From: Phoronis australis
Lineage: Eukaryota; Animalia; Phoronida
NCBI GenBank assembly: GCA_002633005.1
Contig: NMRA01000122.1
Location: 227,908-274,385, forward strand
Length of the DNA: 46,478 bases
Direction: 5' to 3'
Below, in pieces: positions 1 through 29,400 of the stretch. The notes under the pieces are model-generated. The model saw nothing but the letters and a program-made list of their open reading frames with translations. It was not told where the DNA came from and did no database searches. The stretch's first letter is position 1. Each line of letters opens with the position of its first letter. The position numbers and the translations under genes are program-made.

Positions 1-342
1 CTAAAGCGCCACTGTGATGCAAACTTGGGTTTGCATCTCCATTGTTTTGGAGGTGCGCCCGAGGATGTACTCCGGTGGACGGGGTTCTTTAGAAACTGCC
101 ACTTCGGTTTCGCCGGTCACGTGCGGCAGTTTCTACAGTTCCAAAACAAGGGGCTACAAGATGTTCCGATGAATCGACTCCTCCTGGAGTCCGATTCACC
201 GCACCTCGCCATTGGGCAAGCCCCAATGGCGCCCCAATACCTGGGCGAAGTAGCTATGGAGGTGGCGCAGCGTTCTCGTCGTGCGCTGCGTGACATCCTG
301 GCTGCTTCCACCAGGAATGCCAGGCGGCTTTACCATCTCTAA
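1..342 (+). CDS. TatD-family metal-dependent nuclease, C-terminal part (5'-truncated by window)
   Basis: Frame 1 is open from base 1 (LKRHCDANLGLHLHCFGG...) to TAA at 340-342. It has TatD hallmarks HCF, GFAG, P-x-NRLLLESDSPHL, P-x-YLGEVA and the terminal N-A-R-R-L-Y. No introns in this span, and GC is higher than in host exons. Confidence 0.85.
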   Translation, partial: LKRHCDANLGLHLHCFGGAPEDVLRWTGFFRNCHFGFAGHVRQFLQFQNKGLQDVPMNRLLLESDSPHLAIGQAPMAPQYLGEVAMEVAQRSRRALRDILAASTRNARRLYHL

Positions 343-1213
343 CAAATTTTTAGAGGTGGTTCAGCATCCTGGTGTGCCTGGGTCATAACTTATGCCCCGG
401 GTTTTCTCCTAGTCCCTTGGGTAATTGCCTGTTATTATAAACTCTGAGGCTGACTACGGTCTCTGGGTTTGTGCCCTACCCTTGGTCCTAGGAGAAGTGT
501 AATGTCCATATTAAGTAGTATAAGTAGTTAAGTAGCGTACTGGTCCATTATTTTTATATAGTAGTGTTTATTTGTTAAAACTATATAGTATATTTTTGTT
601 ATAAGTTTTCATACTATATATATAGTCTATTATATATTCAAGACTATACTTCCTATAGTATTATGTATTAGTTGTCACTATATAGTTTATTTTTGTATAT
701 TTAGTTAAGTTTCCTATTAGTCTATGTATGTTATTAAAGACTATATCATTTTATATCTCTGTGCATCACTACTAAAGTAATGAATACTCATTTTATGGCC
801 AGTATGCTTTTGTTGTTCAGTTTTTTTAGTTTTTAAAAAGAAAAAGAAAATGTATATATTCTCTCGCCAGGTCATCACCAACAATCAGACTGTTGTCATA
901 GCATAGTCCAGGAATTTTATGCTCCCTGGTACTGGTATTAGTGGAGCATATTTTCTTTTTTTTCTTTTTTAGTCATGTTCGACTACAATAATGGATATAG
1001 GCTATGACTGTATGTCTAATTAGTATGTGTTTTTTTTGGTAGGGGGGGAGAATAGTTAGATAAAATTTTAAACAGTAATTCTTACTTCATAAGGTCATTC
1101 CTAATCATGTTACTTATAGGGTTTAGAGTCTTGTCATCTTAGGTCAAGGGTTTATGTTTAGGTGTTGGGAGTGACGTTCGCCATTTCCTATAAGGGCTCC
1201 ACTCCTTTTCTTT

Positions 1214-1227
1214 AGGGAAGGGAGGAA
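1214..1227 (+). other. Polypurine tract (PPT)
   Basis: AGGGAAGGGAGGAA, 14 purines, directly abutting TGT at 1228. Confidence 0.65.
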
Positions 1228-1528
1228 TGTAGTAAATGTCGACGTCAGTCTCGGCTGTGGCGTCTCTATGTTGTGATGGCCTTTTCGTGACAATGTTGGT
1301 CTTGGCCTGGTGCGACATCTAACGCCAGAAGAGCCCAGCCGAGGTCACACTCCTACCACGTGACGAGTCACCTATCAAGACCACGTGACAAGATCGTCTG
1401 GGCCTTCTGGAGTTCGCTGCCGTCCTGTGCGGACGTAATGTGAGTATCCTCCAGACTTTGCTCTTGCACCGTGTTAATAGGCCCGAACCTGTGTGTCTGT
1501 TTAGCCGACCCCTCTTCACTCTATTACA
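1228..1528 (+). repeat. Putative 3' LTR (301 bp)
   Basis: Starts TGTAGTA and ends TATTACA (6/7 inverted match). GC/CpG-rich relative to the flanks, with two CACGTG boxes (1357, 1382) and a GACGTCA (1241). Only one copy is visible. Confidence 0.62.
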
Positions 1529-2040
1529 ACAGTTTTTAAACTTCGCGGCAGATACCTGGGAAATATAGAGCAACTCGGGTGATTCCGACCGTTATTTGGT
1601 TGTTGCCAAATCAAGTTCAAAAGAACATTCATTGAGAAAAGTGCTCCCGATGACTTGTAAACATGTCGCATGAACAAGGGAATGCAGAATTGGTCTTTGA
1701 CGCATTTTATTGACCAATACTTTCGGCTTTTTGCAAATTTCCGGATGTGCCGAAGAAAGTTTCGGACCTCGGAATAACACGTCATAATACGTCAGAAAGC
1801 AGCGGTGTTTCTACTAATTCTTGAACGACGAAATTACCAACCTTAGTGGTGGAAAAACATTTATTTTTCATGTAAGGTGTCCTTAATATCAAATTACGGC
1901 AACACCCACGGCAATATGCCTGATTGCACTGAGACACTGGTCGGTTCCACTGTTAGCGCTGGAAAGCGGTCCCGGCAGACGATCGTCGTGACTTGGAAAA
2001 ATGCGTCTCGTTTTTATCGCGAAAGACAGCAAATGTGAAA

Positions 2041-2104
2041 ATGACATCCATCCGAATTAATCGCCAAACTACGGACATGCCTCTGCGCGCTTTCGCAGAA
2101 TACG
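2041..2104 (+). CDS. Coiled-coil gene, candidate exon 1 (MTSIRINRQTTDMPLRAFAEY)
   Basis: ATG in AAAATG context within a CpG-rich stretch. The phase-1 donor GTAGAA (weak) fits the phase-1 acceptor at 5560. Confidence 0.45.
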
Positions 2105-5100
2105 GTAGAAACCCGCACCGTCGGAAATCATTTCGAGGCCTTTTACTTCATGGAAAACTAATTGACTACGTACCGGTAAACAGCATAAGTCCCGCATTTT
2201 GTGTTGTGAAATTTGAAGTGAATTGTTTCCGAGTATCAATATGTCATTCAGCGAGTAGGGCAACGTTTCACGAATTTCTTCGGACAGGATGTTTTTTCAA
2301 ACGTCAAGTTGAAAAGTTTGGCCTGCGAACAAATGGAAGGAATTCTACTCTGAGTTATCAATCTTTGGATCTTTAACGACTTTGATGACAGTCACATAGC
2401 AAGTCAGTCCTAGAAAAGTCGTGGATACTTTTTCAACGAGTATTTTCTTCTTTTTCACGTTGCACACTTAGCTAATCGAATGCATGAGTCGGTTAGAGAG
2501 CACTGATTTAATTTTCACGTCGGCAACTGCCTTTCGCTCCAGGGTCTTTCACTGGATGGCGCCAGTGAAGAATAGTAACGCGGTGCATGCATGATATGCT
2601 TGTAAGAACTCAGTTTTGCAACATGAAATTTGTGAGTATTTAACGTCGCAAGAACATAATATAGGCATTTTCTGATGACGTAAAAGCCAATTTTGGTTCG
2701 TAAAAATGGCGGAAAATTTTCGCGACCTGGAATTTATGAATGCGAGCTGAATTTTGAAAATGCGACCTAGGATTTTGGCTTGGTCGCAAAATGCGACCTG
2801 GCGATTTTCAAAGCGTCGAGCCCTGTATAGGCATAGCTCTAGTTTCGAACCCGGTACATCTTGCTTCAGTGCCAGGCGTCTTAACCACTCGACCAAAATC
2901 AAAGAACAATTGCCCGTAGGTGAGTGATTAAGATAGGCCTTTATATTACTACTACACTCACTGCAGATTTACCACACTGAAAATATGCCAACCACGGTTT
3001 AGCAAGGCAAAGCACCCACACGCGGGCACAGCCACAGGTGTCCTCAGGCAGTGACCACCATCTCTAGATTAGCCAGTTGACAATGACTGTCGTCTCTATG
3101 GGCGCTTTTTCTTCAAGCAGTCTTTTGATCAGTTCCCAAAATCAGAAACTGGCCATTTTTAAAAGTGCGCGAGGCAGGTAATATGACGTCAAATCCCCTG
3201 GCGTGCACAGTGTAAAAAAATGGCCAGTGAGTTTCCGATTATGGGACCTGAACAAAGGGCTGCTCAAAGAAAAAGTTTGATAATGAGAGTATTTGTTCGA
3301 GTTGGAAGAAATTAAAGACATCGACAACCTATAAAAATGTGCCTTTGATTTTTTAATCAGTGAGGCATAATTCGCCAAAAAGCTTCGGGCATATGAAGCT
3401 CCTGTAGCAGCTACACCATCTCTACTGAGCCAGCTAGAGATGGTGGTCACTGTCTAAGGCATCCTTAGCTTCTAATCGTCCCCAATACACTGTAATATAA
3501 CTGCAAGGTATGACACTCGGGACTAGGAATTCCAAGGGTGATTCCCTATCAAACTTAAATCTCAATAAATTTACAGAAAACAGGGATTCAACTAGACAGT
3601 GACCATCATCTCTAGTTGGCTCAGTAAAGATAGGACTAGACAGTGATCACCATCTCTAGTTGGCTCAGTAAAGATAGGACTAGACAGTGACCACCATCTC
3701 TAGTTGGCTCAGTAAAGATAGGACTAGACAGTGACCACCATCTCTAGTTGGCTCAGTAAAGATAGGACTAGACAGTGANNNNNNNNNNNNNNNNNNNNNN
3801 NNNNNNNNNNNNNNNNNNNNNNNNNNNNNNNNNNNNNNNNNNNNNNNNNNNNNNNNNNNNNNNNNNNNNNNNNNNNNNNNNNNNNNNNNNNNNNNNNNNN
3901 NNNNNNNNNNNNNNNNNNNNNNNNNNNNNNNNNNNNNNNNNNNNNNNNNNNNNNNNNNNNNNNNNNNNNNNNNNNNNNNNNNNNNNNNNNNNNNNNNNNN
4001 NNGTGTGCACTGTGTGTTGTTTAACAGGTATATCCCCTAGTGTGCACTGTGTGTTGTTTAACAGGTATATCCCCTAGTGTGCACTGTGTGTTGTTTAACA
4101 GGTATATCCCCTAGTGTGCACTGTGTGTTGTTTAACAGGTATATCCCCTAGTGTGCACTGTGTGTTGTTTAACAGGTATATCCCCTAGTGTGCACTGTGT
4201 GTTGTTTAACAGGTATATCCCCTAGTGTGCACTGTGTGTTGTTTAACAGGTATATCCCCTAGTGTGCACTGTGTGTTGTTTAACAGGTATATCCCCTAGT
4301 GTGCACTGTGTGTTGTTTAACAGGTATATCCCCTAGTGTGCACTGTGTGTTGTTTAACAGGTATATCCCCTAGTGTGCACTGTGTGTTGTTTAACAGGTA
4401 TATCCCCTAGTGTGCACTGTGTGTTGTTTAACAGGTATATCCCCTAGTGTGCACTGTGTGTTGTTTAACAGGTATATCCCCTAGTGTGCACTGTGTGTTG
4501 TTTAACAGGTATATCCCCTAGTGTGCACTGTGTGTTGTTTAACAGGTATATCCCCTAGTGTGCACTGTGTGTTGTTTAACAGGTATATCCCCTAGTGTGC
4601 ACTGTGTGTTGTTTAACAGGTATATCCCCTAGTGTGCACTGTGTGTTGTTTAACAGGTATATCCCCTAGTGTGCACTGTGTGTTGTTTAACAGGTATATC
4701 CCCTAGTGTGCACTGTGTGTTGTTTAACAGGTATATCCCCTAGTGTGCACTGTGTGTTGTTTAACAGGTATATCCCCTAGTGTGCACTGTGTGTTGTTTA
4801 ACAGGTATATCCCCTAGTGTGCACTGTGTGTTGTTTAACAGGTATACACTTGACTTGAGATCTGTTGTTGCGCTCATCACATATTTCAGGTTTCGTTGGT
4901 GAATTGAAACTAAAACATTTTAAAAATCTTATTAAAAATGTGACCATTTGTAATGAAAGTAGACATTTACTTAAAACGTGTCTTTTGAAAAAGCCTTTTG
5001 CATGTTGACTTTATATACAGATACAAGTCAGTGATATTAGCACTCTCTAACGTAATTAGTTTGAAAAGCCCCTGCTACCACACCATGGCCATATGGGCTT

Positions 5101-8100
5101 TTTCATGATGTATTCTAAAACAACTAAATGTACAAAGTAGGGGCCTATTGGCGAGAGTGACAACATTACGAAAAGACCAATGTGTGAAATTTTTCAAACT
5201 ATCCATTAATTTTCGGTAACTTCAGAATATCAGAACCAAATGTTGATCTCAATGAGTGCCATTTGCCCTGCAGGGTACTAGTGCCGCAGATGTAATAATT
5301 AAGAAGTTTCAGCACTGATCAGTGAAAGCGCCTATAATCTTGCTTGCTGTATCATAAAAACTACCTTTTCATTGGACAATTCATGAATAGAAATGTGAAA
5401 TTGGTCTCAAATTGCTCCATAGTCCATAGTCAAGTTAAAGGGGATTTCTGTGTTTGGAAATCACCTACGTACTGGTCAGTATTGGTTGAGACCGAATTCA
5501 GCAAATTGTCTTGTCAAAGTTGTCATGGTACGTCATTTTATTCATTGAACATGGTCTCAGTGAATGATGAAGTGACATATCTTTCCAAACCCAGAAGCAG
5601 CTCATCATATGAGGTAAGAACACACTGAGACTTGCTTTCTTATGGTAAGTGGTATAAACCAAAACTTATTTGTTGGAAAACGTTTTTAGCCACTTTAAGG
5701 TTCTGCTGTGCTACCAGCTGCAAACTTAGTAACTCGGTAGTACTCTGTTGGTCTTTTCTGATCTCATGATAGTTGACAATCACTAAGAATTTATACTATG
5801 GATTGTTTTCCTTTCAGCAACGTCTTTCATCGGCCAAGTACACTGCAGTATCCAGTCTGTCCCCTCCCAGTGTTTACAACCGAGCTCCAGTCACTTCACT
5901 TTCCACGCGTAGGGTCACTTTTGACCAGTCGCCAAATGAGTACAATGCAAGCAAACCCAGTGTAACTGGGCTGGTTAATGGACAGACACTCACACGGGGC
6001 GTGTATGATCGGCCAATCAACAGTCAGCCAGACATGTCTGGTGATCGCCAGTCACAACCCTCACTTGACAATTCATCTGCCGTGTCTTTGTTCTTGCATG
6101 AACAGCTTAATCAACAAAATAAGGTAAATATTCATATATTTATTGTAAGACAGGTAAATATTCATATATTTATTGTAAGAGAGGAGGCAGTGTGGCCTGG
6201 TTGATAAGTGCCCGCTTTCTTTACTCGAGGTCGTGGGTTCAAGTCCCACCAGGTTACACTGCTAAACCCTTGAGCCAGGTTTCTAGCTCCTCAGCTCGGT
6301 TTTAACCATATATTAATAAAGCATAAAAATATTTCCAGGTGATCAGTGCAATAGGCCCACATGCGAGGCCTGCTCACGTCTGGTACAATGTGTATCAGAC
6401 CGCCTGCAATTATTTTTCTTTTTATTTATTGTAATGGAGTTTAATGTAGTTACCAAAAAAGTTGACCTTGTAATGGTTTTTANNNNNNNNNNNNNNNNNN
6501 NNNNNNNNNNNNNNNNNNNNNNNNNNNNNNNNNNNNNNNNNNNNNNNNNNNNNNNNNNNNNNNNNNNNNNNNNNNNNNNNNNNNNNNNNNNNNNNNNNNN
6601 NNNNNNNNNNNNNNNNNNNNNNNNNNNNNNNNNNNNNNNNNNNNNNNNNNNNNNNNNNNNNNNNNNNNNNNNNNNNNNNNNNNNNNNNNNNNNNNNNNNN
6701 NNNNNNNNNNNNNNNNNNNNNNNNNNNNNNNNNNNNNNNNNNNNNNNNNNNNNNNNNNNNNNNNNNNNNNNNNNNNNNNNNNNNNNNNNNNNNNNNNNNN
6801 NNNNNNNNNNNNNNNNNNNNNNNNNNNNNNNNNNNNNNNNNNNNNNNNNNNNNNNNNNNNNNNNNNNNNNNNNNNNNNNNNNNNNNNNNNNNNNNNNNNN
6901 NNNNNNNNNNNNNNNNNNNNNNNNNNNNNNNNNNNNTTCAGGTGTATACTTTGTGTTACTTCGTGACTGTGAAGGAAAAGTTCCAAGTAGAAATTTGTTT
7001 CTGGCATTCTAATGCTGTGCTAATCTCGTATGTTGGTAAATTTGTTTTTAATTCTATGTTTCTGTGGTGCTTTAAGCAACTGGTGTATAGGATGTGCTTG
7101 TATTATGAAGATTACTCACATTTTGCCCCTAGCCTATTGAGGAGACAATGACCATGCCTTTCCATTTTGCTAAGTACAACATACTACATATATGCCCTCT
7201 ACTGGCCACTTTATGGCACCAATAAACAACCCTAGAAGGATACCGTATACGGTGCAATTCTGGGCGCGTTTCAACGCTCTGCGTTGCTCTTGTAAAGGTT
7301 ACTTTTGCCCCTTGTAGCTTTGTTGTTTGTGTTGTGCCTCTGTGCAGTAACAACACTTTTTATTCTTCTTCTTGGGGATTTTGGTTCTCTGTGAAGTGGT
7401 GAATTCATTCATGAGAATTTTACATTCTACTCCTCTGCATGACATGGTGATAGAATATTTCAGTAGCTCTCCACTATTTTTCCAGAAAAATAATTGCCAA
7501 AATGTTCATCTTTGGAATGCTGATTACTTTTTTTGCAAATAATGTGGATTTCAGGAATTGTTACTGTACAAATCCTTCGCACCGATGCATGCCTGTAATA
7601 GACTTGAGTGTTCACTTTTGTGGAGAATATGGAATTTCACTTATCGACGATATCATGTGTTAAATTGGTGAAGAATCAGTGTATTGTGTGCTGCAGATCA
7701 TTGACCAGTTGAAGCAAGAGGTCAAGAGACTTTCCACTGAACATGACCAGGATAAGCAGGAACTCCAGGCATTGAGAGGTAATGACACAAGTTTTTCATC
7801 ACCTCACCATGCAACATAATCTTAAGCTTGAAAATAACTATTGTACAACTATGAGTGCAACTGCCATCTTTTTTGACAGTTTTCATTTATTTAGTCAACA
7901 TATGTTAGTGTATACTATAAATAGGTAAATAAAACAACAAGAATGGATCAACTGAAATTTTTGGTTATAATAACGTCCTTTGTCAACAGAAACAGAAATA
8001 AAGTAAAATCAAACACTACTTGACAACTGACATAACGCCACATCTTAAATGTCAGTTGTCATATAGTGTTTGATTTTACTTTATTTCTGTTTCTGTTGAC

Positions 8101-11100
8101 GAAGGACGTTATTATATACGAAAATTTCAGTAGATCCATTCTTGTTGTTTTACTTACCTATTTATATTCTACATTTCGGGAAACAATAGTATCCTTGGGA
8201 GGATCTGGATTGCCTTTTTTATTTTCAGATTTATTTTCTACGTTATTTAGTGTAAACTGAAATGTACAAAGCCAAAACCTGCAAACCTCCATAGTGTGTA
8301 CATCAAGTTTTCAATTAAATCCTTAAGGAAGTGAAAGAAGCATGTCAGTGCCACAGTTAGGTGAAAAATAATGTGACAGATCTGATCTGTTCATCATGAC
8401 AGTGCCACAGTTTGGTAAACAATAATGTGATAGATCTGACCAGTTTAACATGTTTTATACTTTTTGGTTTGAAGTGTAAAAACCAGTTGGCATAAGCGAA
8501 CTATTGGATGATATGCGAAGCCAAAGAATCAAAAATAAATACATGGACAAAAGTTAAGTTGTGTTAGTAACAAAGCTCAGAGGCATGCGGAGATAATTTG
8601 TGTACTAGACATTATGCAACTGTCACGGAAGTAACTTATCAATGAGTTAGCACTTTGCACACTTTTCACAAATTTGCCAAGTAGTCTATTACTGCCTTGG
8701 CAGCGTTTCATCTAACTTCGTGGTCAATAATAAAATGTCTGCTACATTTGTCAAAGGACACTTTCTCTAGAAGATATATGCTACAATTAATGTCTTTATA
8801 GCTGAGTTGTCCCAGGTTCACAACAGAGTGGTGGAACGTGGTGTGGACTTCCAGACAGAACGTAAGATGGAACAGTGGCGGCGTGATCTGTCGTCGGAGT
8901 TACAGCTGATGCAAAGTCAGATGCAGTCTTATCGCGGAGCTACTGACAACCACCAGTACTCAAATACACAGTTACAGTCTGCTCTGAGGGAGCTTCAGGA
9001 CGTGTGAGTTGTGAACAGTGTAATACAGTAGTCTGGGTTACAGTGTAATGCAGTAGTCTGGGTTACAGTGCAATACAGTAGTCTGGGTTACAGTGTAATG
9101 CTATAGTCTAGGTTACAGTGTGATACTGTAGTCTGGGTTATAGTGTAATACAGTAGTCTGGGTTACAGTGTAATACTATAGTTTGGGTTACAGTGTAATA
9201 CTGGGTTACAGTGTAATACAGTAGTCTGGGTTACAGTGTGATACTGTAGTCTGGGTTATTGTGTAATACAGTAGTCTGGGTTACAGTGTAATACTATAGT
9301 CTGGGTTACAGTGTGATACTGTAGTCTGGGTTATAGTGTAATACAGTAGTCTGGGTTTCAGTGTAATGCAGAAGTCTGGGTTACAGACTGTGAGTCTCTC
9401 CTGAATCATGGGATTGAATCCTTTGTTGGTTGATTATTGTACTCTCTGACCTCTTGGTGCTTGAGTGTGTGAGGGGGGTAATTGTGGTGGAATGTGTCGA
9501 GGGTCCTCGAAGCTGATGAGGCTGCCTCAATGAAAATATTTCAAAATTCACGTTACGTAGCATAAACAAAATTGTTCTTGAGAGTGACTAATGATTCTGA
9601 AATCGTGTGCTCAAATATGTTGTCAAACTTGTCAAAGAGAAAAGTTATATTGATCATATTTAGAACTCACCTGGTTATTGTTTTACACTAGTTAATGACA
9701 TGACACTGCTCTCTATCAACATCTTTGATGCAAATTCCTTTAAATCTATGGAATGGGTCATCAGCCAATCCTGTTGTATGTTTGACTATTCTGTTAAGAA
9801 GGGATGCTGCTGCTAAATAGTTGTGATTTCACAACACAATGACTGTATGTGTTTATTAATTTACAGCTCCTTCTGATGTGTAAATGGTTGTTATGAGTCT
9901 TAGTCCTTGAAATCTGATCATGAAGCAAACCAGTATGAATACAACATCGAACTATGAATGCAACATCCAACCAGGAGTGCAGCATCCAACCTGGAGTGCA
10001 AGTGCATAGTTAAAATTAAAATTAATATAGCTGCTATTTAACACTAAAAATCTGCTGTATTTTATTGCAACAGCTTATGAAATAACCTGTTATGGGTTGT
10101 TTTTATTAGGAAAAGATTTGTGATGGATGAAAGTCAGTCTGTGAGACGAGAAGTAGACAGCATCAAGACAAGACTAGGTATTGTACTACTCAGTTGTTTC
10201 TTGACCTTGCTATCTCCTTACTGTGACCCATGGTATGTTCTATGACACAAGGCACTTACAAGACAATTGCAGTGAGAAATCTTGGCGTTTGGAACAAAAA
10301 TAATTAATTTATTTTTTCTCATATGAGTCCTTTCAGTCTCACAGCTCAATCATTTCAATGGTGGCCATTTTGCCAGTGTATACGGGATGAGCTTTCTTCT
10401 CAAGCACTTGCCTTTCACTGGATATCACCTTTCTTGTGCGATCTCATTTAACTCCACAGTTCCTTGCTCTGGAATGTACACCCATCTATTTTCGACAATC
10501 CATAGAAAGGTGAATGGTTGGTGAATTTTAAGTTTCCAATTACAATACCAACCGGTACGTAACATTATCCATGCGTTGCATTTTGTTAGTTTACTTAGCA
10601 CAGCATCATACAGTCTACACTTCAGTATTAGTCACTTCATAATGAAACACTTTCAACCCAATTACCGTTTGTCATCAGATTTAAATTTTGTGATGCATGT
10701 TTTTTCTTTTTCTTTTTCAGTAAAATATGAAATGGATTTGACTTCCCTGAGAACAGACACGAGTGAGATAAGTCGAAGGGTTGACCGGATGGATAGGGTA
10801 ATTGTTGCTGGTTTAAAACTAGTTGTTCCCTCAGTATACTTACAATGGGGTTATGTCCAGTGGATGGGGTTATTATAACTACTTGTTTATGACACCAGGA
10901 TTTTCTTACATATTTCATGATCAGGGGGAGAACTTGTAAGCAGTATAAAATGAACAAAAATACAAATGTGCTAAACATTCTTCAAATAATTGCAAATATT
11001 TCCTTATTTCCATTTTTCACAGGCTTACCATGTGGTTGTTCAAAATTTTACCAAATGCTGCTTGGTAACAGATAGACTATATAAACCATCCTAAAAACAA

Positions 11101-17255: not shown

Positions 17256-17409
17256 CTATCTTCTGGCTTGGCGGTTTATTTTATCGTAGACATCGGGGAA
17301 AGCCTTCTTGCAGTCCAACCCCTCTCTCATTCTGTCATACAAACTGTGGTCGAACATTTGCCGGAACTCTTCCCTGGTCATGAAGGAATCAGCGTACAGC
17401 ATCTGAAAT
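17256..17409 (-). CDS. DHCR24: DHCR24 exon 8 (last)
   Basis: ctgcag | [10 protein letters not shown]...[10 protein letters not shown]. Confidence 0.95.
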
Positions 17410-20400
17410 CTGCAGAAGGTCTCGTGCATCAGTATACTGTCTGTAGTCAATAGTTAATATGTACTGCAAGGTCATTCAAAATATGAATCCTGGTTGAAAC
17501 TGGAATCTGAGGTGAAAAATTACATTTAGATGGAACTAGAACCCCATCAACACACTGGTCACTATGTAAAACACCAAACCCATAGCAGGGTGCTCAGTCA
17601 CACAAACCACGTTTCAAACTTTCAAAAGAAAATGATTTCCATTCCCAAATGAGCGATTCAGGGCACCAACTGCAGTTCATCTTCCTTTAAATGTGAGAAA
17701 TGAATTGTTTTCAGACATGGTCAGGAAGAGTTTGAGAACAGGTTTTAAAAGTAAATCAATCAATTTCATGACTTTCTTGTAATGGCCCTAACATGAAGGA
17801 AACAGTGGTGGCCTCTGATTGATATTGCTACAGTGAAGTAGTTTTCAAAAAGTCTACGAATGTTGGTGAAATTTCGTAAAAAAATTCCAGCTAGATGATA
17901 TGAGAAACTTAATTTTCATCTGCTTTCCTGATGAGTTCTCCCATTAACTCTGACAGAAACAAGATGAATTTTGATGAAACTCAACTGTTTTTTCGAAAAA
18001 CACTTCAGATCTTGGAGATCCTACACAATCCCCTCATCTTAAATAACAATACAATTGTCCCTTATAATGACTTACTCTGAAGAATGCGGTAACTTTTTTA
18101 AATTAAAATAGTGCAGGAATACTTCCACTAAACTAAGTCATTGCTTACCCTTTCACATCCCGGACAAACTTCTCCAGCTTCCTGGTGGTAGACTTTGCCT
18201 CATAGTCCTTTGTGGTGGGGGCACCATACGCACCGATATCCACATACATCTCCTCGGCACTTCCTCCGGGGTGAACCATTCCAGGATTCGCGGGCAAGTT
18301 GAAGGGACACAACCACAGAGGGTACATCTGAAATTGTTCAAAAGAAAGGGTTTAACATATTAACCCAAAAAAATGAAACATGAAAGGAACACAAATGGGT
18401 TAAACATGAAACAATTTAACAAGAAACAGTTAATAAACAAGAATGGTTAATAAACAAATAAGGGTTAAAATTGAAAGGCTTTCACACAAAAAGCAAACAG
18501 AAATGGGTAAATGTGCAAAATATGCTGGAAATACATGTGATGTAGTTGATACAGAAATTGCAAAGTTGCCAATATCTATAAAATAAAAAGCAAAAAATGA
18601 GACTAGACAAGCAATGACATCAGAAACTGGAAGACAGTACTCCTTTCAAAAATCAAGGTCTAACAACATTTTGTTGTATTCACTACACTGCAACCAGTAA
18701 ACTTATTTACATCAGAACGATATCCTTATAATCATAATGTAAAGTAGTGATAAGCATAGCAACTATGAGCTACAATGTGCCTATTGCCCTACTGACCCAC
18801 AGCATTGTGGGTAAATATCTCAGAATGTGAGAAGGCCTATCACTTACTTTAATTTCATTTTCAAAACACTTGAGAGAGTCGGCCAACTTGGATATGGGCA
18901 CCAGCATATCCTGTATGATCTGATGTTCCTCGTACATGCGCTTGGTAGTCTCGCTCTGGGTCAGTTTGAGTAATGAAATCTTGGGTGGTACCATCCAACC
19001 AAACAGATAGCGGAACAAGGGGTTGTTACCAAATGGAATAATGTCCTACGGCAAAAGTGAAATTGTATGGTGAGCAAAACAGATTACATGGCTTGGATAT
19101 ATTTCGAGGTGGCCTTGACTTGGACACTGATATTGCGTGGCCATCAAACTCAGTACATCCCATGGCCTCTGCATATACCACAGGTACTCTGGATGCAATA
19201 TTTATAAAACAAAATTAATCTAGTTATTATTTACATGAAATAAGAAGACAGGAACTTAATCAATCATGACCATATTTCAATGAGAAATTATTCACCAAAA
19301 CACACTCTCATTTGACAAATGAAGCAATTGAGACTCCAATGATTATTCTTCCAACTGAAATCCTCATCGACTATGCATACTCCACCTCCTTGTAATTACA
19401 AGGATTTTTCCTGGAGCATTACTGAATGTACAAAAATGCCAAGCGTGCAATGTAAAATGCCACTGCTATGACTGAGCAAAGTTGGATACAGATGCCAGTA
19501 AATGTGCGTTTAAGGTTATCTCAAACATTATTTATACTTACTAGCCATTATTATAATTAAGCTAACACTTTTTAAGGCAAAACTTCACCTTTAGGAAAGG
19601 TACATTCGTAGCAAAACAACACCTCTGCCGTATTTAATGAAACCTTTTTAAATGAAAACTTAACCACTTACCTCACACTATTAGGAATTTTCGATTACTC
19701 TTTTAGTTTGGTTTCTAAGACAAATTAACTCACAAAACGGAAGTTTTTTTTTTTTAAAATTGCAGACATATTTGTCTTTGTTACATTATGCAAAAACTAA
19801 GCCTTTATATCGAAAATCCTAACAGCATTTATGAGACTGATGACTAAATATTAAATTCGGAAAGTTTCAGCAAAGTCGTTTTCAAGAACTTGTGTTCCTA
19901 AGTTCAAATTAAGTCGATTTGCCGAGAAAAAGCCGATTAAGTTGTGAGACGTGAAAATCTCAAAATCTTCAGTTAATTATGCGGTGAAAACTTGTTTTCG
20001 GTCATGTTCGCTACTTCAACGTTCACTCGCACTGTCAACTGAATTTGCAGTACGTAATTAACTTAATTATCACTAAAACGTTTTACGACCACCTCCAGCT
20101 AAGACGGAGTCTACAGATGACATACTTAAATGTATGTCAACAGTTCATTGTTATACACACCATGCACCAGGAGATTGATATGAATCCAAGTATGAAATGG
20201 ACAACAGAAATCAAGTCGGTGGTTAAAGCGTGTTGTGAGTACGAGATCGAAACAGCGAAATGTCAAATTACAAATCGAATGAATTTGGGTGAGGATTTTT
20301 CTCTTTTCAAAACTTGTTGTGTTTGTGAACACAATTAAGGTCAAAGAGGCGTGCGGCGACTCAGAGCATTCGTTCTTAACAGTCGTACGCATGTAGATGC

Positions 20401-23400
20401 ACAACTATACATTTTGTTTTCTTCAGTGACTCACCTGAATCTGCCAGAATATACTGCGTGAGTGCCGATGGTAATAGTGTCTCAGGGGTATATACTCCAC
20501 ACAGGGACCAGTCTTGAGCATCTGTTCAACATGCTTGAAGAACCATGGTTTCCAGAAGTTGCCTATTTCATTCACCTGAATACAATGAATGTCAAGGTGT
20601 TCAGCAGATTGTGCATGCACGAACGTTCACTTACTTAGCACACAATATGGCCGACAAATGAAATTCTATCGTTATGTACCATTGCCCTAGACTGTTAAAA
20701 CCAAGAAATTTCCAACAACATGATCTGATCTAGAATCACGCTAGATTAAACTTGACAAACAAGCCTATTATATTGGTACACAAAGCTGTGGTAGTAGGGT
20801 CAGAGCTTACAGTTACACAAGTTAGCAGTTGAAAGTTAAGTCCTCTGTTTTTCTCCGTTTAAAATTTTTGGTGGCATTTGTTGAGTCATTAGGAAATAGA
20901 ATTTTTTAAATATCAGTTAGCGTCAAGCATGCTGTTCACAACATAATTCATGGATTACGTGAGCTTATCAGATGAATGCAGGCAATGAGAGAGTTGGACT
21001 ATGTAAACATTGGTTTGATAACTTTCTCCCCTTTCTATCACTATCACATTGATAACGACACATCTCTATCCCCAATTCCTGATCAGCAACATTGGGAAAC
21101 ACACCCTAAAGTGCAGGAGCATAACGTTTGTCAAATTTCTACAGAAAAAGAAAGATTAAAAAAAGTTTGATCTATTACATGCTTGGTCTTGCAATGTTTA
21201 GATTTAATAAAACAACATTTAGTGACAGAGGTTTCCATTACAAGAAGATGGAATAATTAACGACTTACTGTGTCAAATATCTTTTGCAAAATAAGAAGAG
21301 AATTAGCATCAGATATTTTCATTTTTATTGATGACATTTTGGCACACAAATTGGTTAAAAGTTAAACGGATATGAACACTATCAGTCCATGTACAGGTTG
21401 TTTATCATGACATTTTTAACAGTTTATGAGGAATTAAGTTTTAGAGCCCATTACATTTAAAACAGTCAGTAACTGTATTGTATGATATTGCACAGAAATC
21501 ATGTTCAAACAACATAAAGTCATAAAAATCAAAAACTTTACTTATTTCGCTGATTTATTTTTCAAATGCACAAAACATGAGACAAGCACCTGAGACTGGC
21601 ACGAATGCAATAAGCGAGCACTCGACTTGATAGACAACACAGGTAAGGAAATTAAAGTTATGTAAGTCGCTATCAACGAGTGTGTGTGTTTAGCCAAATA
21701 TCAACAAAGCTATAGATATTGACTTTAGTTAGTAAAAGCAGATTACATTTTCTGAAAGTTGAAAACCTGCAGAGTTTGATATAATTTTTACCAGTCTACA
21801 ATTAACTGGATCACCTGACCAATATCTTTTTAGTAAAATTTAGCTAAAAGGAAAAATACTTTGATAACAAAACCATGAGATCAAATCGCAAGATCAATTC
21901 TTATTTTCATGTTCATACTTTAAACATTCCCTTTAAACAAACAAGCATCTCTTTGGATAAATCTATGAAATTTCTCAAACGTCACATGGTCAGCCACACC
22001 AGTTCCATCCATAATTCAGTCTCACTGCAGGGGGCTAGTCATCAATAGACTTACTATTTCTTAGGTCACATGATGAAGGTTAATTACTGCTATTTATCAG
22101 ATCACCTCTAAATAGAATGTTACAGTTATTGTAAAATAACTTGCACGTCATTTTTGTATAGTCTGACTTAAATAAGTAAGAATGCAGATGTACTTAAATA
22201 GCTGAGAAAGTTGGCAATTTCAGCAAAAATCGCAATGAGTAACACAAGAACGACTTAATGCATAAATTTTTCAAAGATTAATTTTTTTCAAGACTGAAAG
22301 TAAAATAAGTATGTGACTCAAAACATTTTATTTAAAATTTACACAAGAATTATTTTTTCACTCATTAAAATGAAATTTAGTGTACCAAAAAATAACAGCT
22401 GAAAAAATATTTTAAATTCGTTTTTTCTTAATCTACCAGAAAAACCAGGGGAGACTAGAAATGCTACATGGAATAGGTTGAAACGTCACAATTTCCCATA
22501 CTGCTTTACTGTTTTTATACCTTTCCAGGTTCAGCCTCGTCTGTCAAACTTCCAGTCATCACAACACATCTGTCAATAGAGTACATCAAACCCTCGACGA
22601 ACATGCTGGGATCCTTTTTGGTCGACTCTTCACTGAACTTGGCCACTGACTCTTTGAATGAATGTGTTGGATGGTACTCCATTCTCACATACTTCTTAGC
22701 CGGAATTATCGTGATTTCTGCTGCCACTAGGAATCCCAAGGTTCCATAAGACCACGGAATAGCGTAAAACAAGTCAGGGTTCTCATCCTGTGGAAAGATT
22801 GTGAAATTTTGATACAACAGAGAAAATAAAATATTCCAGGCTGTACTTTTTTAGACGGGGTAATGAAACAATTATCTTCTCAACACCACAAAGCCCCTGT
22901 TAGAGCTGTATTTAGTTACACTGAGTCCAGCTGGGACAGTTATATGACTAAAAACAGAGCTCACAAAGAACTACTTTCACTGACCTTGTAAGTCAATTTC
23001 AAAGGGCCTATTGTGTTTGAAGGATACCTATGATTTACAACATTCCCCTGCAAAATTCTAAGCCACTGTTGGACTACTTACCTCCTCAAAGCCCAAAATG
23101 AAACATGTCTGCAGATAATCATTGTAGAAGCTCACCAAAACAAGCATCGAAACTTACCATTTGACTAAAATGGTTGTTCATATTAGAAAGCTAGAAATTT
23201 CAAGCATTACAATTCATTGAACCAACGGTTTTAAACTTAAAATGTTGACTCTATGACTTGATTAACATGTTCCTAATGTCATTGATTCAATGAAACAAAT
23301 AAGGTCCAAGACCACAGGTCGTGCTTTTGTAGCTCCCCCAAAATATGAAGAAAATGAATTGGGTCAGGTTTGACAGCAACTTTTTGGACTAGACGGAAAG

Positions 23401-26400
23401 TGATAGCCACGTATGATATTCAGTGGTTGCTTGAAGTTGTTTAGAGTAAATAGATTCCAGAATCTTGTCTACCTAGACACAGAAGAGCCGCCATTTTCAA
23501 AACACGTCCTTGGTCAAAGTTGACTATTTGGCACAAATTCAGGTAACCTCCAGATAAGTGAAAAAAGTCAGAATTTGGTTGGTAATGACATAATTTAACT
23601 GAAATTTCTGTAATCTAGAGTTCAAAAGCATTCTCATTCTTGTCCAAAATCACAATTTTGGGTCATTTTTTGACATGTCACATTTTTTCTAGTGGACGCA
23701 GAAAGGCAAAAACACATGGCTTTGTTGATTTCTTGATCTCTGACAAACCCCATAGATTCAGTTATGCCTTTTTAGGTGCCTTGATTAAGGGCGCAAACAA
23801 GGGCTATCATTGACCCAGACCAGTGATAACGTCAAAATCAGCCACTCAAACATTAGTCTTTGACCTAGCAATGGAGGGAATTGTAGTGTCCCCAGGAACG
23901 GAACAGGGATTAGAAGGACTCAGGCATAAAAATCCAAGTCTAATGCGATTAAATTATTAATGAATGAAAGGAACTTATTTTTTAAACCAAGGCAAAGTTG
24001 GTGACATATAAAAACTAAAAAGACTTAATGTTTGCTGGTCAGTTCTCAAGCAGAACATTTTATATCTTGAGAAATTACAAAATAAAACCGAAAGAGAGCA
24101 CCCAAATACAGAGAAATGGAAATTTCATATCAGCCCCGTCTTTCTGAAACATCTTACACACAACATAAAACACAGCCTTAAGCAACAATCCTTCAATTTT
24201 GAAAAAAAAAGAATTGCCAAAAATTTATAAATTTTAATTTCATTGTTGCAAATATTCTGAAAATTTACCAATCGTTATTTGACATTTGCAGTACAGCACT
24301 CGTTATGACATTGTTTTCTAAAAGTTTATTGTTGCTGAGAAATTTTGATGAAATAAAACTTTACTTTTCCACAATATTTACAAACTTTTATCACACTTTC
24401 AAAGAGAAAATGGCCAACCCTAAAACCCATTTACAAATTTCACACACATGATAGTTAGAAGCAATTCCCATTTCCCAATCCCATGCTGGCGGTTACCTTA
24501 GTACATCTGACTAGACTCCCATCAGATAAGACAATCTCATAGGCCACGCAAATGTGTTGGAACAAGCCATAGATATGTGATGAGGTCTCTATACCTGTAC
24601 CCATAACAAGCCCACCTGTAATAGAAGATAGCACCTGCTGATGGGAAAATATACTACTACTAATATACCATAAACATGTTTCTGGATAAAAAACATAGGA
24701 ACCGACTGTCGCATTTGTGATCTTTTGAAATAATTCACCATTTTACTAAAGACTAACACAGTGCTAATGAGGCCAAGAAGATATCTAAAGCTCCATGTAG
24801 CCGTGGCAGTGAATCTTGGACCAATCAATTACAAACGTTAACTCACTGTACCAATAAACAAACGTTTCCCCCAAAACATATTAAACAAATCAACACTGAT
24901 GGTGCTGCGCTGGGCTTTAAACACCCATGTCCCACTTCATTTTCATGCCTTTCCTCAAACAATGAATTGTTACACAAACCACATTTCACCATGTGGAGAA
25001 TTTCTTGCTTACACTGTTCTCTGCTCTCATTCCCTAAGCCCCAGAGGACTTTTATGATGCCTATTCAGCTCGTCCTTTGTATTGATCTAGATCTGATGAA
25101 GTGGAAATGTAATAGCTAGCACTACTTTCTTAACAATGGTGGTCCTTATTACACCCAAATTGTTTCTCTCTGGCATTTGTACACGAGTTAAAGCCTGCAA
25201 TGTAGAGAGCAGTTTTAACTTGGTACACTTTAAATCTAACAAAAAGACTTAAAAGTTAATTTGCGTTGATCTTGACAAAGGGCCACTTCCCAAAGGAACG
25301 TTGGTTTTAAATATGTTTCATACCTGTTTTCATTACTTTAATTTAATACTCCTGTCTACTTGTTTTTTTCTTACGGGTTATAGTTGCTATCTTTTTATTT
25401 TGTTTTTAAACAAAGTATCAAAACAACTTAGAAGTTTGATTGTGAACCCAAATTCCCTGAATTTTCCAGATTACAGCTACACCAAACATGTCACAGCAAA
25501 CAAAACTACATAACTATTCTAGCTTTTCCTCAGTCTAAAAAATGAAATCACAGCTCTTGCCCATTGACCAACCTCATCCACTGCTTGCACTCTCTCGTTG
25601 ACTACAAAGCTAGCCATCTTAGTTGTCTTCACAGCTGCAAGCTAACTATTGAAATTGGCACATATCCGCGAATAGCAGTTTTCTGGTTAGTGTACTTTAA
25701 CTTTTGAGTATAGTAGTTCGGCATGCGCTGAGCTATAAGGGATGTTTTAAAAGTTATTGACATCTACGGTAATTTAGTGACTGTGTGCTGTTTATAGATG
25801 TTTCAATGTAGTTAGTTGTATATTAAAAGAATAATCCACGTGATATTGTTAAGCGTTTGTAAATCAGCGAGTATATCAATGTGCACAGTCGTTTATCTTC
25901 AATCGTACCCAATGTTTGTAGCTTTTAGCTTTTAAATTCGATTTTTAAAAACCGAAAACCAAACTTGTTGTTTTTTCCATCTGAATACAGTTGCGGTGTT
26001 TGTTTTTAACGAAAACTGTTGGTTAATACATTTTGAAAACTCGCCAGTATGTACAGGCAGAGGTGTTTACTACAGTTTATGGTAGGGTAATTANATGACC
26101 GCATAATGCGTCCACATATAAATATGTGGGCGCATAAAAATGAAATCACAGCTCTTGCCCACCGACCAACCTCATCCACTGCTTGCACTCTCTCGTCGAC
26201 TACAAAGCTAGCCATCTTAGTTGTCTTCACAGCTGCAAGCTAACTATTGAAATTGGCACATATCCGCGAATAGCAGTTTTCTGGTTAGTGTACTTTAACT
26301 TCTGAGTATAGTAGTTTGGCATGCACTGAGCTATAAGGGATGTTTTAAAAGTTATTGACATCTACGGTAATTTAGTGACTGTGTGCTGTTTATAGATGTT

Positions 26401-29400
26401 TCAATGTAGTTAGTTGTATATTAAAAGAATAATCCACGTGATATTGTTAAGCGTTTGTAAATCAGCGAGTATATCAATGTGCACAGTCGTTTATCTTCAA
26501 TCGTACCCAATGTTTGTAGCTTTTAGCTTTTAAATTCGATTTTTAAAAACCGAAAACCAAACTTGTTGTTTTTTCCATCTGAATACAGTTGCGGTGTTTG
26601 TTTTTAACGAAAACTGTTGGTTAATACATTTTGAAAACTCGCCAGTATGTACAGGCAGAGGTGTTTACTACAGTTTATGGTAGGGTAATTACACTTAATT
26701 GGGTCTTGCTCACACCGGACAATGCAGTCATCGCAACTGAGTCTGACTCTGGCGTCGCGCTCTCTTTGATCCCGCTAAAAGCCGCTCAGAAGGACGAGCG
26801 GTGAAAAGTCAGGCATATTTTTAGAAATGCGTGTAAGCGTATTAGTCACAGCATGCTGTTAAGTGAGGGAGAGAGAGAGGGGGAGACAATAATTTTCAAA
26901 CAAGCTGCAGATCAGTACAAACAGCAAAAGAGGAAGTGAAGACACAAAGATTAAACAAATAACCTTTGTCATGCGTGATGCTGCAGCGAGAAATCAAACG
27001 GAGTCATGCTCAACATCATTAATTAAACTCCCACTTCATTTTTTCTCAGCAAATCCTCTTAGAGTCTAATAGAGCACACAGTAGGCATTTGACAATCCTG
27101 AAAAGAGGGGAGATTGAAAAAAGTCTAAAGCCAGTTTTAAAGGTCATTGACTGAAAACTTGCGGTTAAATTAACTGTTAATATTGTTTTTTTTTTATTTT
27201 TGCTGTTTAAGCAATCACTGCGAATTCCAAGATAATGACTAAGGTCAAGGAATATTTTTCCATGTTTATTTTTATGAATATTTACAATTCACATGAAATA
27301 ATATCACACGTTACAATATTGTTTCAGTGTATAAGTACAGCACTCCACGCTTAGCTAAACGTCAGGTTGCATTCAGCAACCCAACAAAAATCCCAGGTGT
27401 CCAAAAGTGAAAATCTCCGGCACTAATATATTTTAAGGTCCCTATTTATCCCTAAACTTTCAGCAACCAAAAAAATCCTCGGACATCCCATTCTCCTTCT
27501 GCCTTTCTTAATTTCGCCCGTACATCTGTGTACGGTCATTCTTTAACTCCACTAACTCAATTACTCCTCCCACCAAAAAAACGGAACAATTGTGAATCAA
27601 AGGTAGTAAATCTGGGAAAACTTTTAGTAATTTAAAGTTTGGAAGACAACATGTACCTTGGAATGAATTCAGAGGGAATTATTGTCAGACTTTAATACTC
27701 GCAGTGGCGACCTCGTGGCGACTTGGAATTTTTCCCAGGTTGCCAAACACAATCTGGTCACCAAATCGAGTGCTAAAGTACATTATTTACAGTTAGCAAC
27801 AAGTACCACATTTTCTTCAGAAACATTTGGAAATTTAAGATCTGCTGAGCAATTTTGTTGTGTAAATATATAAATTTTCATCTAATATGATCAATTTGCA
27901 AGATGTTTGTTTCAACCATTCAGCAAACAGGAGAACAGTGTGAGACAGCGTTCCCAAAACAGATAACGAAAGGTTTCACTTTGATCTACACAAAAAGAAC
28001 ACAAATCATTTATTTTTTAGATCAATTTTATTCAAATAATTATTGGTTGGGCAATATTCTGTGAATTGGGCAGTATTGAAACCAATGTTATTTTGCTTTT
28101 TCTACAACTGTCCTCGTCACCAATCAGGACCATGCAATTATAGAATTTTTCACAAAAAACGCACAAAACACCCCAACTCCTGAAAGTGTACACAAACAGG
28201 GACTTCGACAGCTTACAGGAAAGGCGACTGAAAGAGAAAATGTTATGAGGGGACAATTCCTCCGGGTTGTCACATGAGGTGAAAGTGATCCTAAACTCAA
28301 AGAGCATTTCTGATCCAAGGGGATTTCTGGGTCTAGGAAGGGGAATTCCGTTTGATTTTTAAATGTTTTTCTGAGAAGAAAGAAGCCCATAAAAAATCAA
28401 TGCATTGAGGGCTTTGACAGAAGTGGGAATATTTTTGTACGATGATAATTTATTTAAGAAAATTGTATGTTAACATCTGCTCTTATGAAACTGCCTGGAT
28501 GTTGGAAGTTTCAGTGAGGCATATCTGTCATACTCTGCATGTGGATAAACTGAAGTATCCATTTACGAGTCACGATTTGAAACGATGACAACTCATATCC
28601 ATTCTATTTAACACCCAAGGCATTTCAATTGAGGAACTAAAAATCAGAGTATGAGTGTTAAAGCCACATGCAAACAGCCCATCTTCAAACGGCCATTGTT
28701 TTTGGCTTGTTTCTTGTGGTGTAAACCTTATATTTTACATAGAATTAGCCTTCCCAATTGCACATGATAACACTATCCACTGAATGAAGTTCACCATTTG
28801 TTTGAATGCGGAGCTTTAACGTCACTACCTAGGGTTCGTTTGAGTTAGAAGTTCGTGACTTCGGCTCAAATCTATTTTTCACTACATTGGGCTTCAATTT
28901 GAGTTCATCGGTGCATGGAGATCAAAAACTTAGTTGTTAGAAGGTTTTTAGCCTAACGTTAGCAATAACTCGAACTGATACAATCAATTAGTAGGTAATA
29001 TGGTGGTCTGAGCCTCTGGGTCAGCATGGGTTACCCACAATGAGTACGGTACATTAACAGTACTTCTAGGGTCAGAGCCTCTGGGTCAGCCTGCTTATAC
29101 CTACAATATGTATTCACCAATAGCACTACAGTGGTCTGAACCTCTGCCAGTCGGCCCGAGTTAACCACAGTGAGTACACATACTCACCAACAGTAATTTG
29201 ATGGCCTGACCCTCTGTCTCAGCCTCATTGTCCATAATTAGTACATATGTACTCACCAACAGTAAGATCATCCAACTCTGGCACAATAGGTAAAGTCCAG
29301 CCCAGAGGAACCAACGCATGAGTAATCTGACCCATATTGACCATTGGCTCCACTCGTACCACCTGGCGGTCTGTATCAATGTCCAGAATGTCCATCAGGT

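Follow-up and report, generated by a model that had tools for sequence, protein, structure and literature searches.

TatD enzymes act as 3'-5' exonucleases on single-stranded DNA and RNA and as apurinic/apyrimidinic (AP) endonucleases on double-stranded DNA, and an HxH motif is the defining mark of their class II (PMC10085689). One human member, TATDN2, degrades the RNA strand of R-loops (PMC10711561). Among retrotransposons with long terminal repeats (LTRs), where the function of third genes other than env is mostly unknown, the closest described elements are Juno and Vesta of bdelloid rotifers, whose third open reading frame (ORF3) encodes a DEDDy enzyme of RNase D-like fold, predicted to be a 3'-5' exonuclease (PMC5408684). 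PHD fingers have likewise been reported in retrotransposons (PMC6673714). Here, we analyze a 46,478-nucleotide stretch of the Phoronis australis genome (assembly GCA_002633005.1, contig NMRA01000122.1, positions 227,908 to 274,385 of the forward strand), hereafter the window. Its first 1,531 positions are the 3' end of one copy of a multicopy LTR element, comprising the tail of a TatD gene, a polypurine tract (PPT) and an LTR.

The 3' end of a multicopy LTR element

The features at the left end of the window are as follows.

1–342, plus strand: last 113 codons of ORF3 with their stop, encoding the C-terminus of the TatD domain, based on the PF01026 match, conserved residues and tree placement
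343–1213, plus strand: AT-rich 3' non-coding region of the element, 871 bp, based on a GC content of 0.33 and a multicopy depth like that of the ORF
1214–1227, plus strand: polypurine tract of 14 nt, flush with the LTR, read from the sequence
1228–1531, plus strand: 3' LTR of 304 bp, TGTAGTAA...TTACAACA, based on flank diversity, a shared ACA, a 7/8 inverted repeat and depth
1532–1536, no strand: candidate right-hand target-site duplication (TSD) GTTT(T), placed by the LTR end at 1531, its left twin lying outside the window
1532–2825, no strand: separate high-copy non-coding repeat that hosts the insertion and is not part of the element, based on read depth, joints and loose ends

The open frame at 1–342 matches positions 143–253 of the PF01026 (TatD_DNase) profile in Pfam (E 6.9e-13). 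Residue 14, the histidine of HCF, is retained, as are residues 63 and 65, which form the Glu-x-Asp pair, and the fragment is 45% identical to ORF3 of contig L180, one of the related contigs described below. The gene starts to the left of window base 1, and its HxH part therefore lies outside the window. The frame and the LTR have GC contents of 0.56 and 0.53, respectively. A first-pass annotation, made from the letters alone, had proposed a GC-rich TatD C-terminus, about 870 bp of AT-rich non-coding DNA and a 14-nt polypurine tract flush against TGTAGTA, all of which agree with our results. It had also called this C-terminus intact and intronless, which the window allows to be judged over 113 codons. 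The ORF3 stop and the LTR are 885 nt apart. A tract of at least 14 purines flush with TG and followed within 150–700 nt by a 7/8 terminal inverted repeat was seen once, against 0.06 expected per window in 200 shuffles. No second LTR copy occurs within the window, and Rfam gave no match over positions 1–4000.

Sequencing reads provided evidence on copies and borders. In DNA run X2, summed contig depth, which is not a copy number, was 1127–1357 over positions 1–400 and 4396–9115 over 1201–1500, with single listed contigs at 24–49; these sums indicate many copies, the LTR being more numerous than the interior. Seven contigs extend left past window base 4. Loose read ends, which reach 30 letters at most, start before position 1228 in all four read runs (11 contigs; 20, 16 and 8 reads). 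Their low agreement (0.46–0.6) means that many unrelated flanks are joined to the same TG, so the left LTR border is real.

The right border required revision. The first-pass annotation had ended a 301-bp LTR at 1528 and expected a TSD of ACAG(T) at 1529. However, in run X9 two further loci, each covered by 5 reads, carry the window's ACA after TTACA before diverging, the terminal inverted repeat is 7/8 for an end at 1531 versus 6/8 for one at 1528, and pieces of the neighbouring repeat begin at 1531 with upstream letters that mismatch 1529–1530. The LTR therefore most likely ends at 1531, with GTTT(T) from 1532 as the TSD candidate, and the end at 1528 was dropped together with its proposed duplication. 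The element is inserted into a high-copy repeat that ends at 2825, with a depth of up to about 106,000 over 1532–2825, a sharp right border and loose ends behind 2825 in 71 contigs. This repeat also contains internal sub-repeats and joints leading from 2800 back to 1531.

A Gypsy clade with TatD behind pol

At E 0.001, 690 representatives matched the window fragment. The best 150 of them share 35–49% identity with it, and many of these are proteins of 600–1085 residues with TatD as the last domain. None of the 67 longer matches scanned contained a reverse transcriptase (RT), integrase (IN) or protease (PR) domain. The family was also present in 3 of 380 prokaryotic genomes searched, and its source there is bins of the species-representative collection with animal-type retroelement contigs: G772 has at least 150 RT matches, G773 at least 49 and G653 at least 14 (loci L172–L241). 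These contigs look like host contamination, and they offer a genomic context for the family.

The context set comprised 24 contigs with family-type matches, after seven lower-scoring matches had been excluded as presumed bacterial TatD. Pol lies directly upstream of TatD on the same strand in 15 of the 24, represented by the integrase in 12 and by the PHD end only in three. Among the remaining contigs, L199 carries gag and protease before a broken TatD, and the other eight, which show no pol, start within ORF3 or no more than about 1.3 kb from it. Gag, a pol of the order PR-RT-RNase H (RH)-IN, and ORF3 are combined in eight contigs (L178, L181, L182, L183, L185, L189, L196 and the permuted L191). 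Pfam identified zinc-knuckle gag, protease, RT, RNase H, integrase, PHD and TatD in L178, confirmed gag and pol in L182, and found in L196 the same pol without PHD, plus TatD. No dUTPase domain was present in the three pol frames scanned. The gag frames of three TatD-bearing elements (L178:1743–3680, L182:1650–3962 and L196:705–2858) each show a weak helix-hairpin-helix match near the start, at E 0.001–0.005 and below the cut-off.

Behind ORF3, a purine tract flush with TGT.GT was found in 9 of 21 related contigs, 186–1342 nt from the stop. The LTRs of L191 and L196 measure 349 and 363 bp, have 7/7 inverted ends in ACA, and are followed after 17 and 14 nt, respectively, by a TGGC motif that may belong to a tRNA primer-binding site. 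Since the related contigs are collapsed repeats, paired LTRs and TSDs were not seen. In these relatives, the superfamily is Gypsy, specifically a clade with a PHD finger on the integrase; for the window copy, the link to pol is inferred from them, its own gag-pol lying outside the window. The relatives thus bear out the suggestion of an LTR lineage whose env-like slot holds a TatD nuclease: they show gag, PR-RT-RH-IN, a TatD ORF, PPT and LTR, and the multicopy window fragment belongs to the same family. The superfamily, which the first-pass annotation had considered not determinable, follows from the Pfam domain order of the relatives, in whose ORF3 TatD is only the last of three domains.

The protein cluster of P0195, a family member, contains pieces of Gypsy pol (RT-RH-IN-PHD) unrelated to P0195 as 8 of its 14 members, a mixture that suggests a read-through bridge, itself not seen. 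No pol-TatD fusion of 1900–5000 residues occurred among 7975 candidates, which is weak evidence. Generic TatD-pattern scans of metagenome, genome and viral contigs returned ordinary TatD genes, with the family's M-domain (described below) or CDP motifs in none of 171 loci. Viral contigs gave nothing for the window fragment, the family motif or the pol protein, and phage records gave nothing for the M domain.

The phylogenetic distribution of TatD was assessed in an RT-RNase H tree of 50 rows, for which 40 comparison contigs were hand-picked from the top of the match list. An 11-row clade (SH-aLRT 100) unites all seven PHD contigs that reach past pol, P0327 and three contigs that stop earlier; TatD is present in all seven that reach far enough. 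L196 belongs to the clade just outside this one, next to L202 and L203, for which 829 and 1061 bp, respectively, revealed no ORF. TatD occurs in none of the 36 rows outside, only 12 of which have at least 2 kb behind pol. Across 12 elements, integrase and TatD identities are correlated (Spearman 0.71; 1 of 2000 permutations as high), with TatD identities of 29–60% and integrase identities of 46–85%. The integrase and TatD trees have four groupings in common, among them L193 with P0327/P0195; the L179–L189 pair appears in the TatD tree only. This shows that ORF3 and integrase are co-inherited; it says nothing on function. Estimates of dN/dS on TatD, which the first-pass annotation had proposed among copies, were 0.13, 0.14, 0.14 and 0.15 for four pairs out of the six closest, the other two being saturated, and the TatD domain is therefore under purifying selection. 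TatD cargo marks an old Gypsy clade.

A TatD tree had also been proposed. In a 161-row tree, the ORF3 family stands apart from the sampled bacterial TatDs (support 99), no search having returned a canonical TATDN2 sequence. In a 57-row tree, the window fragment lies within a 33-row clade (96/83) with ORF3s of PHD elements, a Mya family and one Dreissena family.

Dispersed copies of the family are annotated as host genes. Mya arenaria has 13 near-identical records on 11 sequences of different length, and there are clusters of 20 and 11 near-identical members, almost all from Dreissena polymorpha, as well as further clusters of 182, 125, 64 and 17. When six full-length Mya copies are compared with one reference, 0.4% of residues differ in the TatD domain and 3.4% in the linkers, a contrast that is weaker in other sets and slight in that of P0173. 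Bivalve RefSeq labels for members include 'putative deoxyribonuclease TATDN2', 'YcfH-like' and uncharacterized; a Crassostrea 'TATDN2' groups with ORF3 of L196 (support 100/96) and is thus probably element-borne. 'TatD family hydrolase' entries in symbiont bins are also members of the ORF3 family. Such labels swell the number of apparent host genes and can be mistaken for gene transfer.

The ORF3 protein and its possible role

ORF3 usually encodes 700–1100 residues. Alignment and an AlphaFold model of the member P0011 indicate three folded parts joined by disordered linkers: a helical N domain (about 70 residues), a helical M domain with a C2H2 zinc finger (about 135 residues) and TatD. The M domain opens with Cys, Cys, His and His, which are kept in 74, 75, 77 and 81 of 81 sequences. 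In TatD, the HxH histidines are found in 123 and 122 of 145 core sequences, the remainder being nearly all gaps (22 and 21), and the later metal ligands Glu, His, His and Glu-x-Asp are kept in 141–143 of 145. The P0011 model shows a TIM-barrel amidohydrolase fold, with pLDDT mostly above 90 in the TatD domain, and it matches solved TatD structures in Foldseek at E 1e-14. Profile scores are 133 bits for YcfH, 61 for TATDN3 and 58 for TATDN1. Based on sequence and model, the domain is a predicted class II (HxH) TatD nuclease. The N and M domains have no Pfam match and no Foldseek match at E 0.001 among PDB and viral models; VIA gave only generic helical matches (best Z 7.7; M barely tested), and Atlas scores were below 0.8, which does not imply a new fold.

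An envelope-like membrane role for ORF3 was considered and rejected: none of 39 proteins has a signal peptide, none has a hydrophobic stretch of at least 2.0, and Pfam finds TatD only, with no envelope match. By contrast, a basic signal precedes the zinc finger in 21 of 39 full proteins versus 0 of 39 for the other linker, used as a control. These features together point to a soluble nuclear protein. Additionally, in 9 of 15 elements a pyrimidine tract with YAG precedes the first ATG by at most 16 nt, versus 136 of 2247 other ATGs; this acceptor-like signal suggests an RNA that is subgenomic and spliced, like that of env.

Taken together, we hold with good confidence that the window copy comes from a Gypsy retrotransposon, as judged from its relatives, whose third gene encodes a nuclease, predicted to be active in the 3'-5' direction, that is selected for the element's benefit; this confidence does not extend to the substrate. 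Several observations weigh against this interpretation. Pol, 5' LTR, primer-binding site and left TSD were seen neither for the window copy nor for its own family, the window starting inside ORF3, and the exact position of the fragment in the 57-row tree is weak (41% of columns, 82/49). ORF3 is split across two frames in 6 of the 24 related contigs. Most Gypsy lineages of the same bins are without TatD, which is thus not needed for transposition as such. RNA reads are few and partly derive from other copies: in run X7, first mates over 1–300 number 16–23 on the plus strand versus 5–6 on the minus strand, and over the LTR run X8 leans like X7 whereas X9 leans the opposite way. Because library orientation is off record, we claim neither sense expression nor an expression level. 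Lastly, the splice-acceptor rule was set after the junctions had been viewed, and no spliced read was seen.

A mechanism can be proposed on this basis. A spliced subgenomic RNA would serve to express ORF3, as it does for env, and the ORF3 product would enter the nucleus by means of the basic signal ahead of the zinc finger, which may tether it to nucleic acid. In RNA:DNA hybrids that the element makes, the two-metal TatD domain would then remove the RNA strand, or it would remove loose single-stranded 3' ends of the same origin; candidate substrates are R-loops at transcribed copies and left-over RNA or cDNA ends. Such trimming may raise transposition success. Taken alone, with the activity and substrate that it predicts, this mechanism is tentative, and we give it somewhat less than an even chance.

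Two other uses of the nuclease deserve comparison. It may serve counter-defence, destroying small RNAs, nascent transcripts needed for co-transcriptional silencing, or immune-stimulating nucleic acids. The separate env-like expression slot, the nuclear signal, the PHD chromatin reader on the integrase and the faster divergence of TatD than of integrase are all consistent with this, as is the 3'-5' exonuclease of another fold in the same slot of the rotifer elements (PMC5408684); however, the tested pairs, at dN/dS of about 0.14, give no sign of positive selection, and we consider this role doubtful. Alternatively, ORF3 may play its part at the DNA stage by repairing damaged cDNA or the gapped integration site, either as an AP endonuclease or as a cleaner of 3' ends. 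AP endonuclease activity on double-stranded DNA in TATDN1, TATDN3, TatD, YcfH and YjjV (PMC10085689) fits this proposal, and so does the lack of a dUTPase domain in the pol frames scanned. ORF3 is fused to pol in 0 of 15 contigs, however, and so has no obvious route into the particle. To our knowledge, moreover, all other Gypsy lineages are served by host repair enzymes, and we regard such a repair function as quite unlikely. We accordingly rank trimming of the element's own hybrids and 3' ends first, counter-defence second and cDNA or integration repair third, with no firm discrimination among them.

Two further explanations concern the identity of the element rather than the activity of its nuclease. 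A non-autonomous family, in which LTRs and ORF3 are kept and gag-pol is partly or wholly lost, would account for a window sequence that begins inside ORF3 with nothing seen further left, and L199 offers a parallel in having gag, protease and a broken TatD but no RT. The window copy also differs from all aligned reads at several sites, for example 136, 162 and 1279. Nevertheless, wherever ORF3 is unbroken and a related contig extends more than about 1.3 kb upstream of it, pol is present, and the frame and catalytic residues of the window fragment are intact, making this explanation improbable. Scarcely credible is the view that the last exon of a host TATDN gene lies beside a solo LTR by chance, or that TatD is a passive, recently captured passenger. 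Some members are indeed named for TATDN2 in RefSeq, and the trees contain no canonical TATDN2 sequence. Against this stand the multicopy depth that spans ORF, spacer and LTR, the near-identical Mya records and Dreissena clusters, and the constant position of TatD after pol, along with its purifying selection and its joint divergence with integrase. A host TATDN orthologue was dropped for these reasons, the family being multicopy here and in both bivalves and linked to pol in relatives; the single-copy, spliced host orthologue envisaged in the first-pass annotation is thus not what the reads show.

In a broader scenario, an old marine-invertebrate Gypsy clade may encode its own nuclear anti-silencing nuclease, with PHD-guided integration into chromatin and a tethered TatD that strips nascent RNA and R-loops from the element's own copies, removing the handle for small-RNA-guided silencing. 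We think this scenario rather unlikely. If true, it would be a retrotransposon counterpart of viral immune-evasion exonucleases, and many 'TATDN2-like' host genes and some 'bacterial TatD' genes of symbiont bins would be retrotransposon genes.

Neighbouring features and comparison with known systems

Elsewhere in the window, a multi-exon gene on the minus strand at 17290–29350, which we take to be a host gene resembling DHCR24 (sterol reductase), ends near 17290, and the element is therefore not in its intron. An exon at 42431–42958 on the plus strand encodes a UHRF1 tandem tudor domain (PF12148, E 6.6e-10). Tandem arrays occupy 3591–3778 (44 bp), 4003–4846 (37 bp), 9015–9386 (25 bp), 37187–37408 (44 bp) and 38764–38955 (44 bp), several of them adjoining assembly gaps; a long hairpin lies at 7909–8173 and MITE-like inverted repeats at 33626–34107.

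Other Gypsy lineages of the same bins carry frames of different kinds behind pol. In six of these (L206:5306–6055, L211:6672–7589, L212:247–1386, L214:8466–9032, L216:233–1546 and L230:4603–5655), five match C2H2 zinc-finger profiles, most below the cut-off, and one is coiled-coil-like. Permuted gag may account for some of the six; should they be third genes, an ORF3 with a zinc finger may be older than the capture of TatD. Three additional third genes encode a BTB/POZ domain (L222:7326–9089, E 6.6e-13), a GDSL lipase (L233:5905–6537, E 4.6e-7) and a baculovirus-F-type envelope protein (L236:6439–8865, E 9.2e-13).

Among the matches listed in the literature searched, no TatD-bearing retrotransposon was found; Repbase, Dfam and subscription journals, which were not covered, may list such elements. 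The term 'TatD' is absent from 7 supplements of PMC13524379, the 5 searched supplements of PMC6238403 and the text of PMC10294476. By our analysis, a Gypsy clade with a conserved TatD-nuclease ORF3 appears to be new, while a non-env enzymatic ORF3 is of a known kind, as in the rotifer DEDDy case. Taken with that case, the TatD clade suggests that a 3'-5' exonuclease was recruited twice, independently, into this position. A known enzyme fold, intact catalytic residues, purifying selection and tracking of the integrase make the role of ORF3 directly testable, and its two further folded domains are without a known match.

Compared with described systems, the TatD-bearing elements share with Juno and Vesta a Gypsy-type PR-RT-RH-IN and an enzymatic non-env ORF3 behind pol, which in both cases is known from sequence as a predicted 3'-5' exonuclease with intact catalytic residues (PMC5408684). 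They differ in having a TIM-barrel TatD instead of the DEDDy fold, in carrying the enzyme as the last of three domains of a long protein, in the PHD finger of the integrase and in the dUTPase, which was not found here (PMC5408684). Moreover, ORF3 here tracks the integrase across an old clade at dN/dS of about 0.14; the rotifer ORFs, by contrast, seem to have been acquired recently and show no significant departure from neutrality within the genome (PMC5408684). Similar to env-bearing Gypsy elements such as errantiviruses, ORF3 lies between pol and PPT and has an acceptor-like signal before its start codon; unlike their env (PMC13524379), it lacks a signal peptide, hydrophobic stretch and Pfam envelope match, is a predicted nuclear enzyme and bears no sign of infectivity. 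A further TatD recruited into genetic conflict is the HxH nuclease QatD of the QatABCD anti-phage system (PMC13434339), but QatD is a bacterial defence protein, and ORF3 proteins score 24–76 bits against its NCBIfam cut-off of 230. With class II TatDs (TATDN2, TATDN3, YcfH and YjjV; PMC10085689, PMC10711561), ORF3 shares HxH, Glu, His, His, Glu-x-Asp and the TIM barrel, and with TATDN2 in particular a long N-terminal extension (PMC10711561). In contrast to these enzymes, it is mobile, multicopy and encoded in a single ORF, with two extra folded domains that lack a Pfam or clear PDB match, and its family forms a branch of its own relative to the sampled bacterial TatDs.
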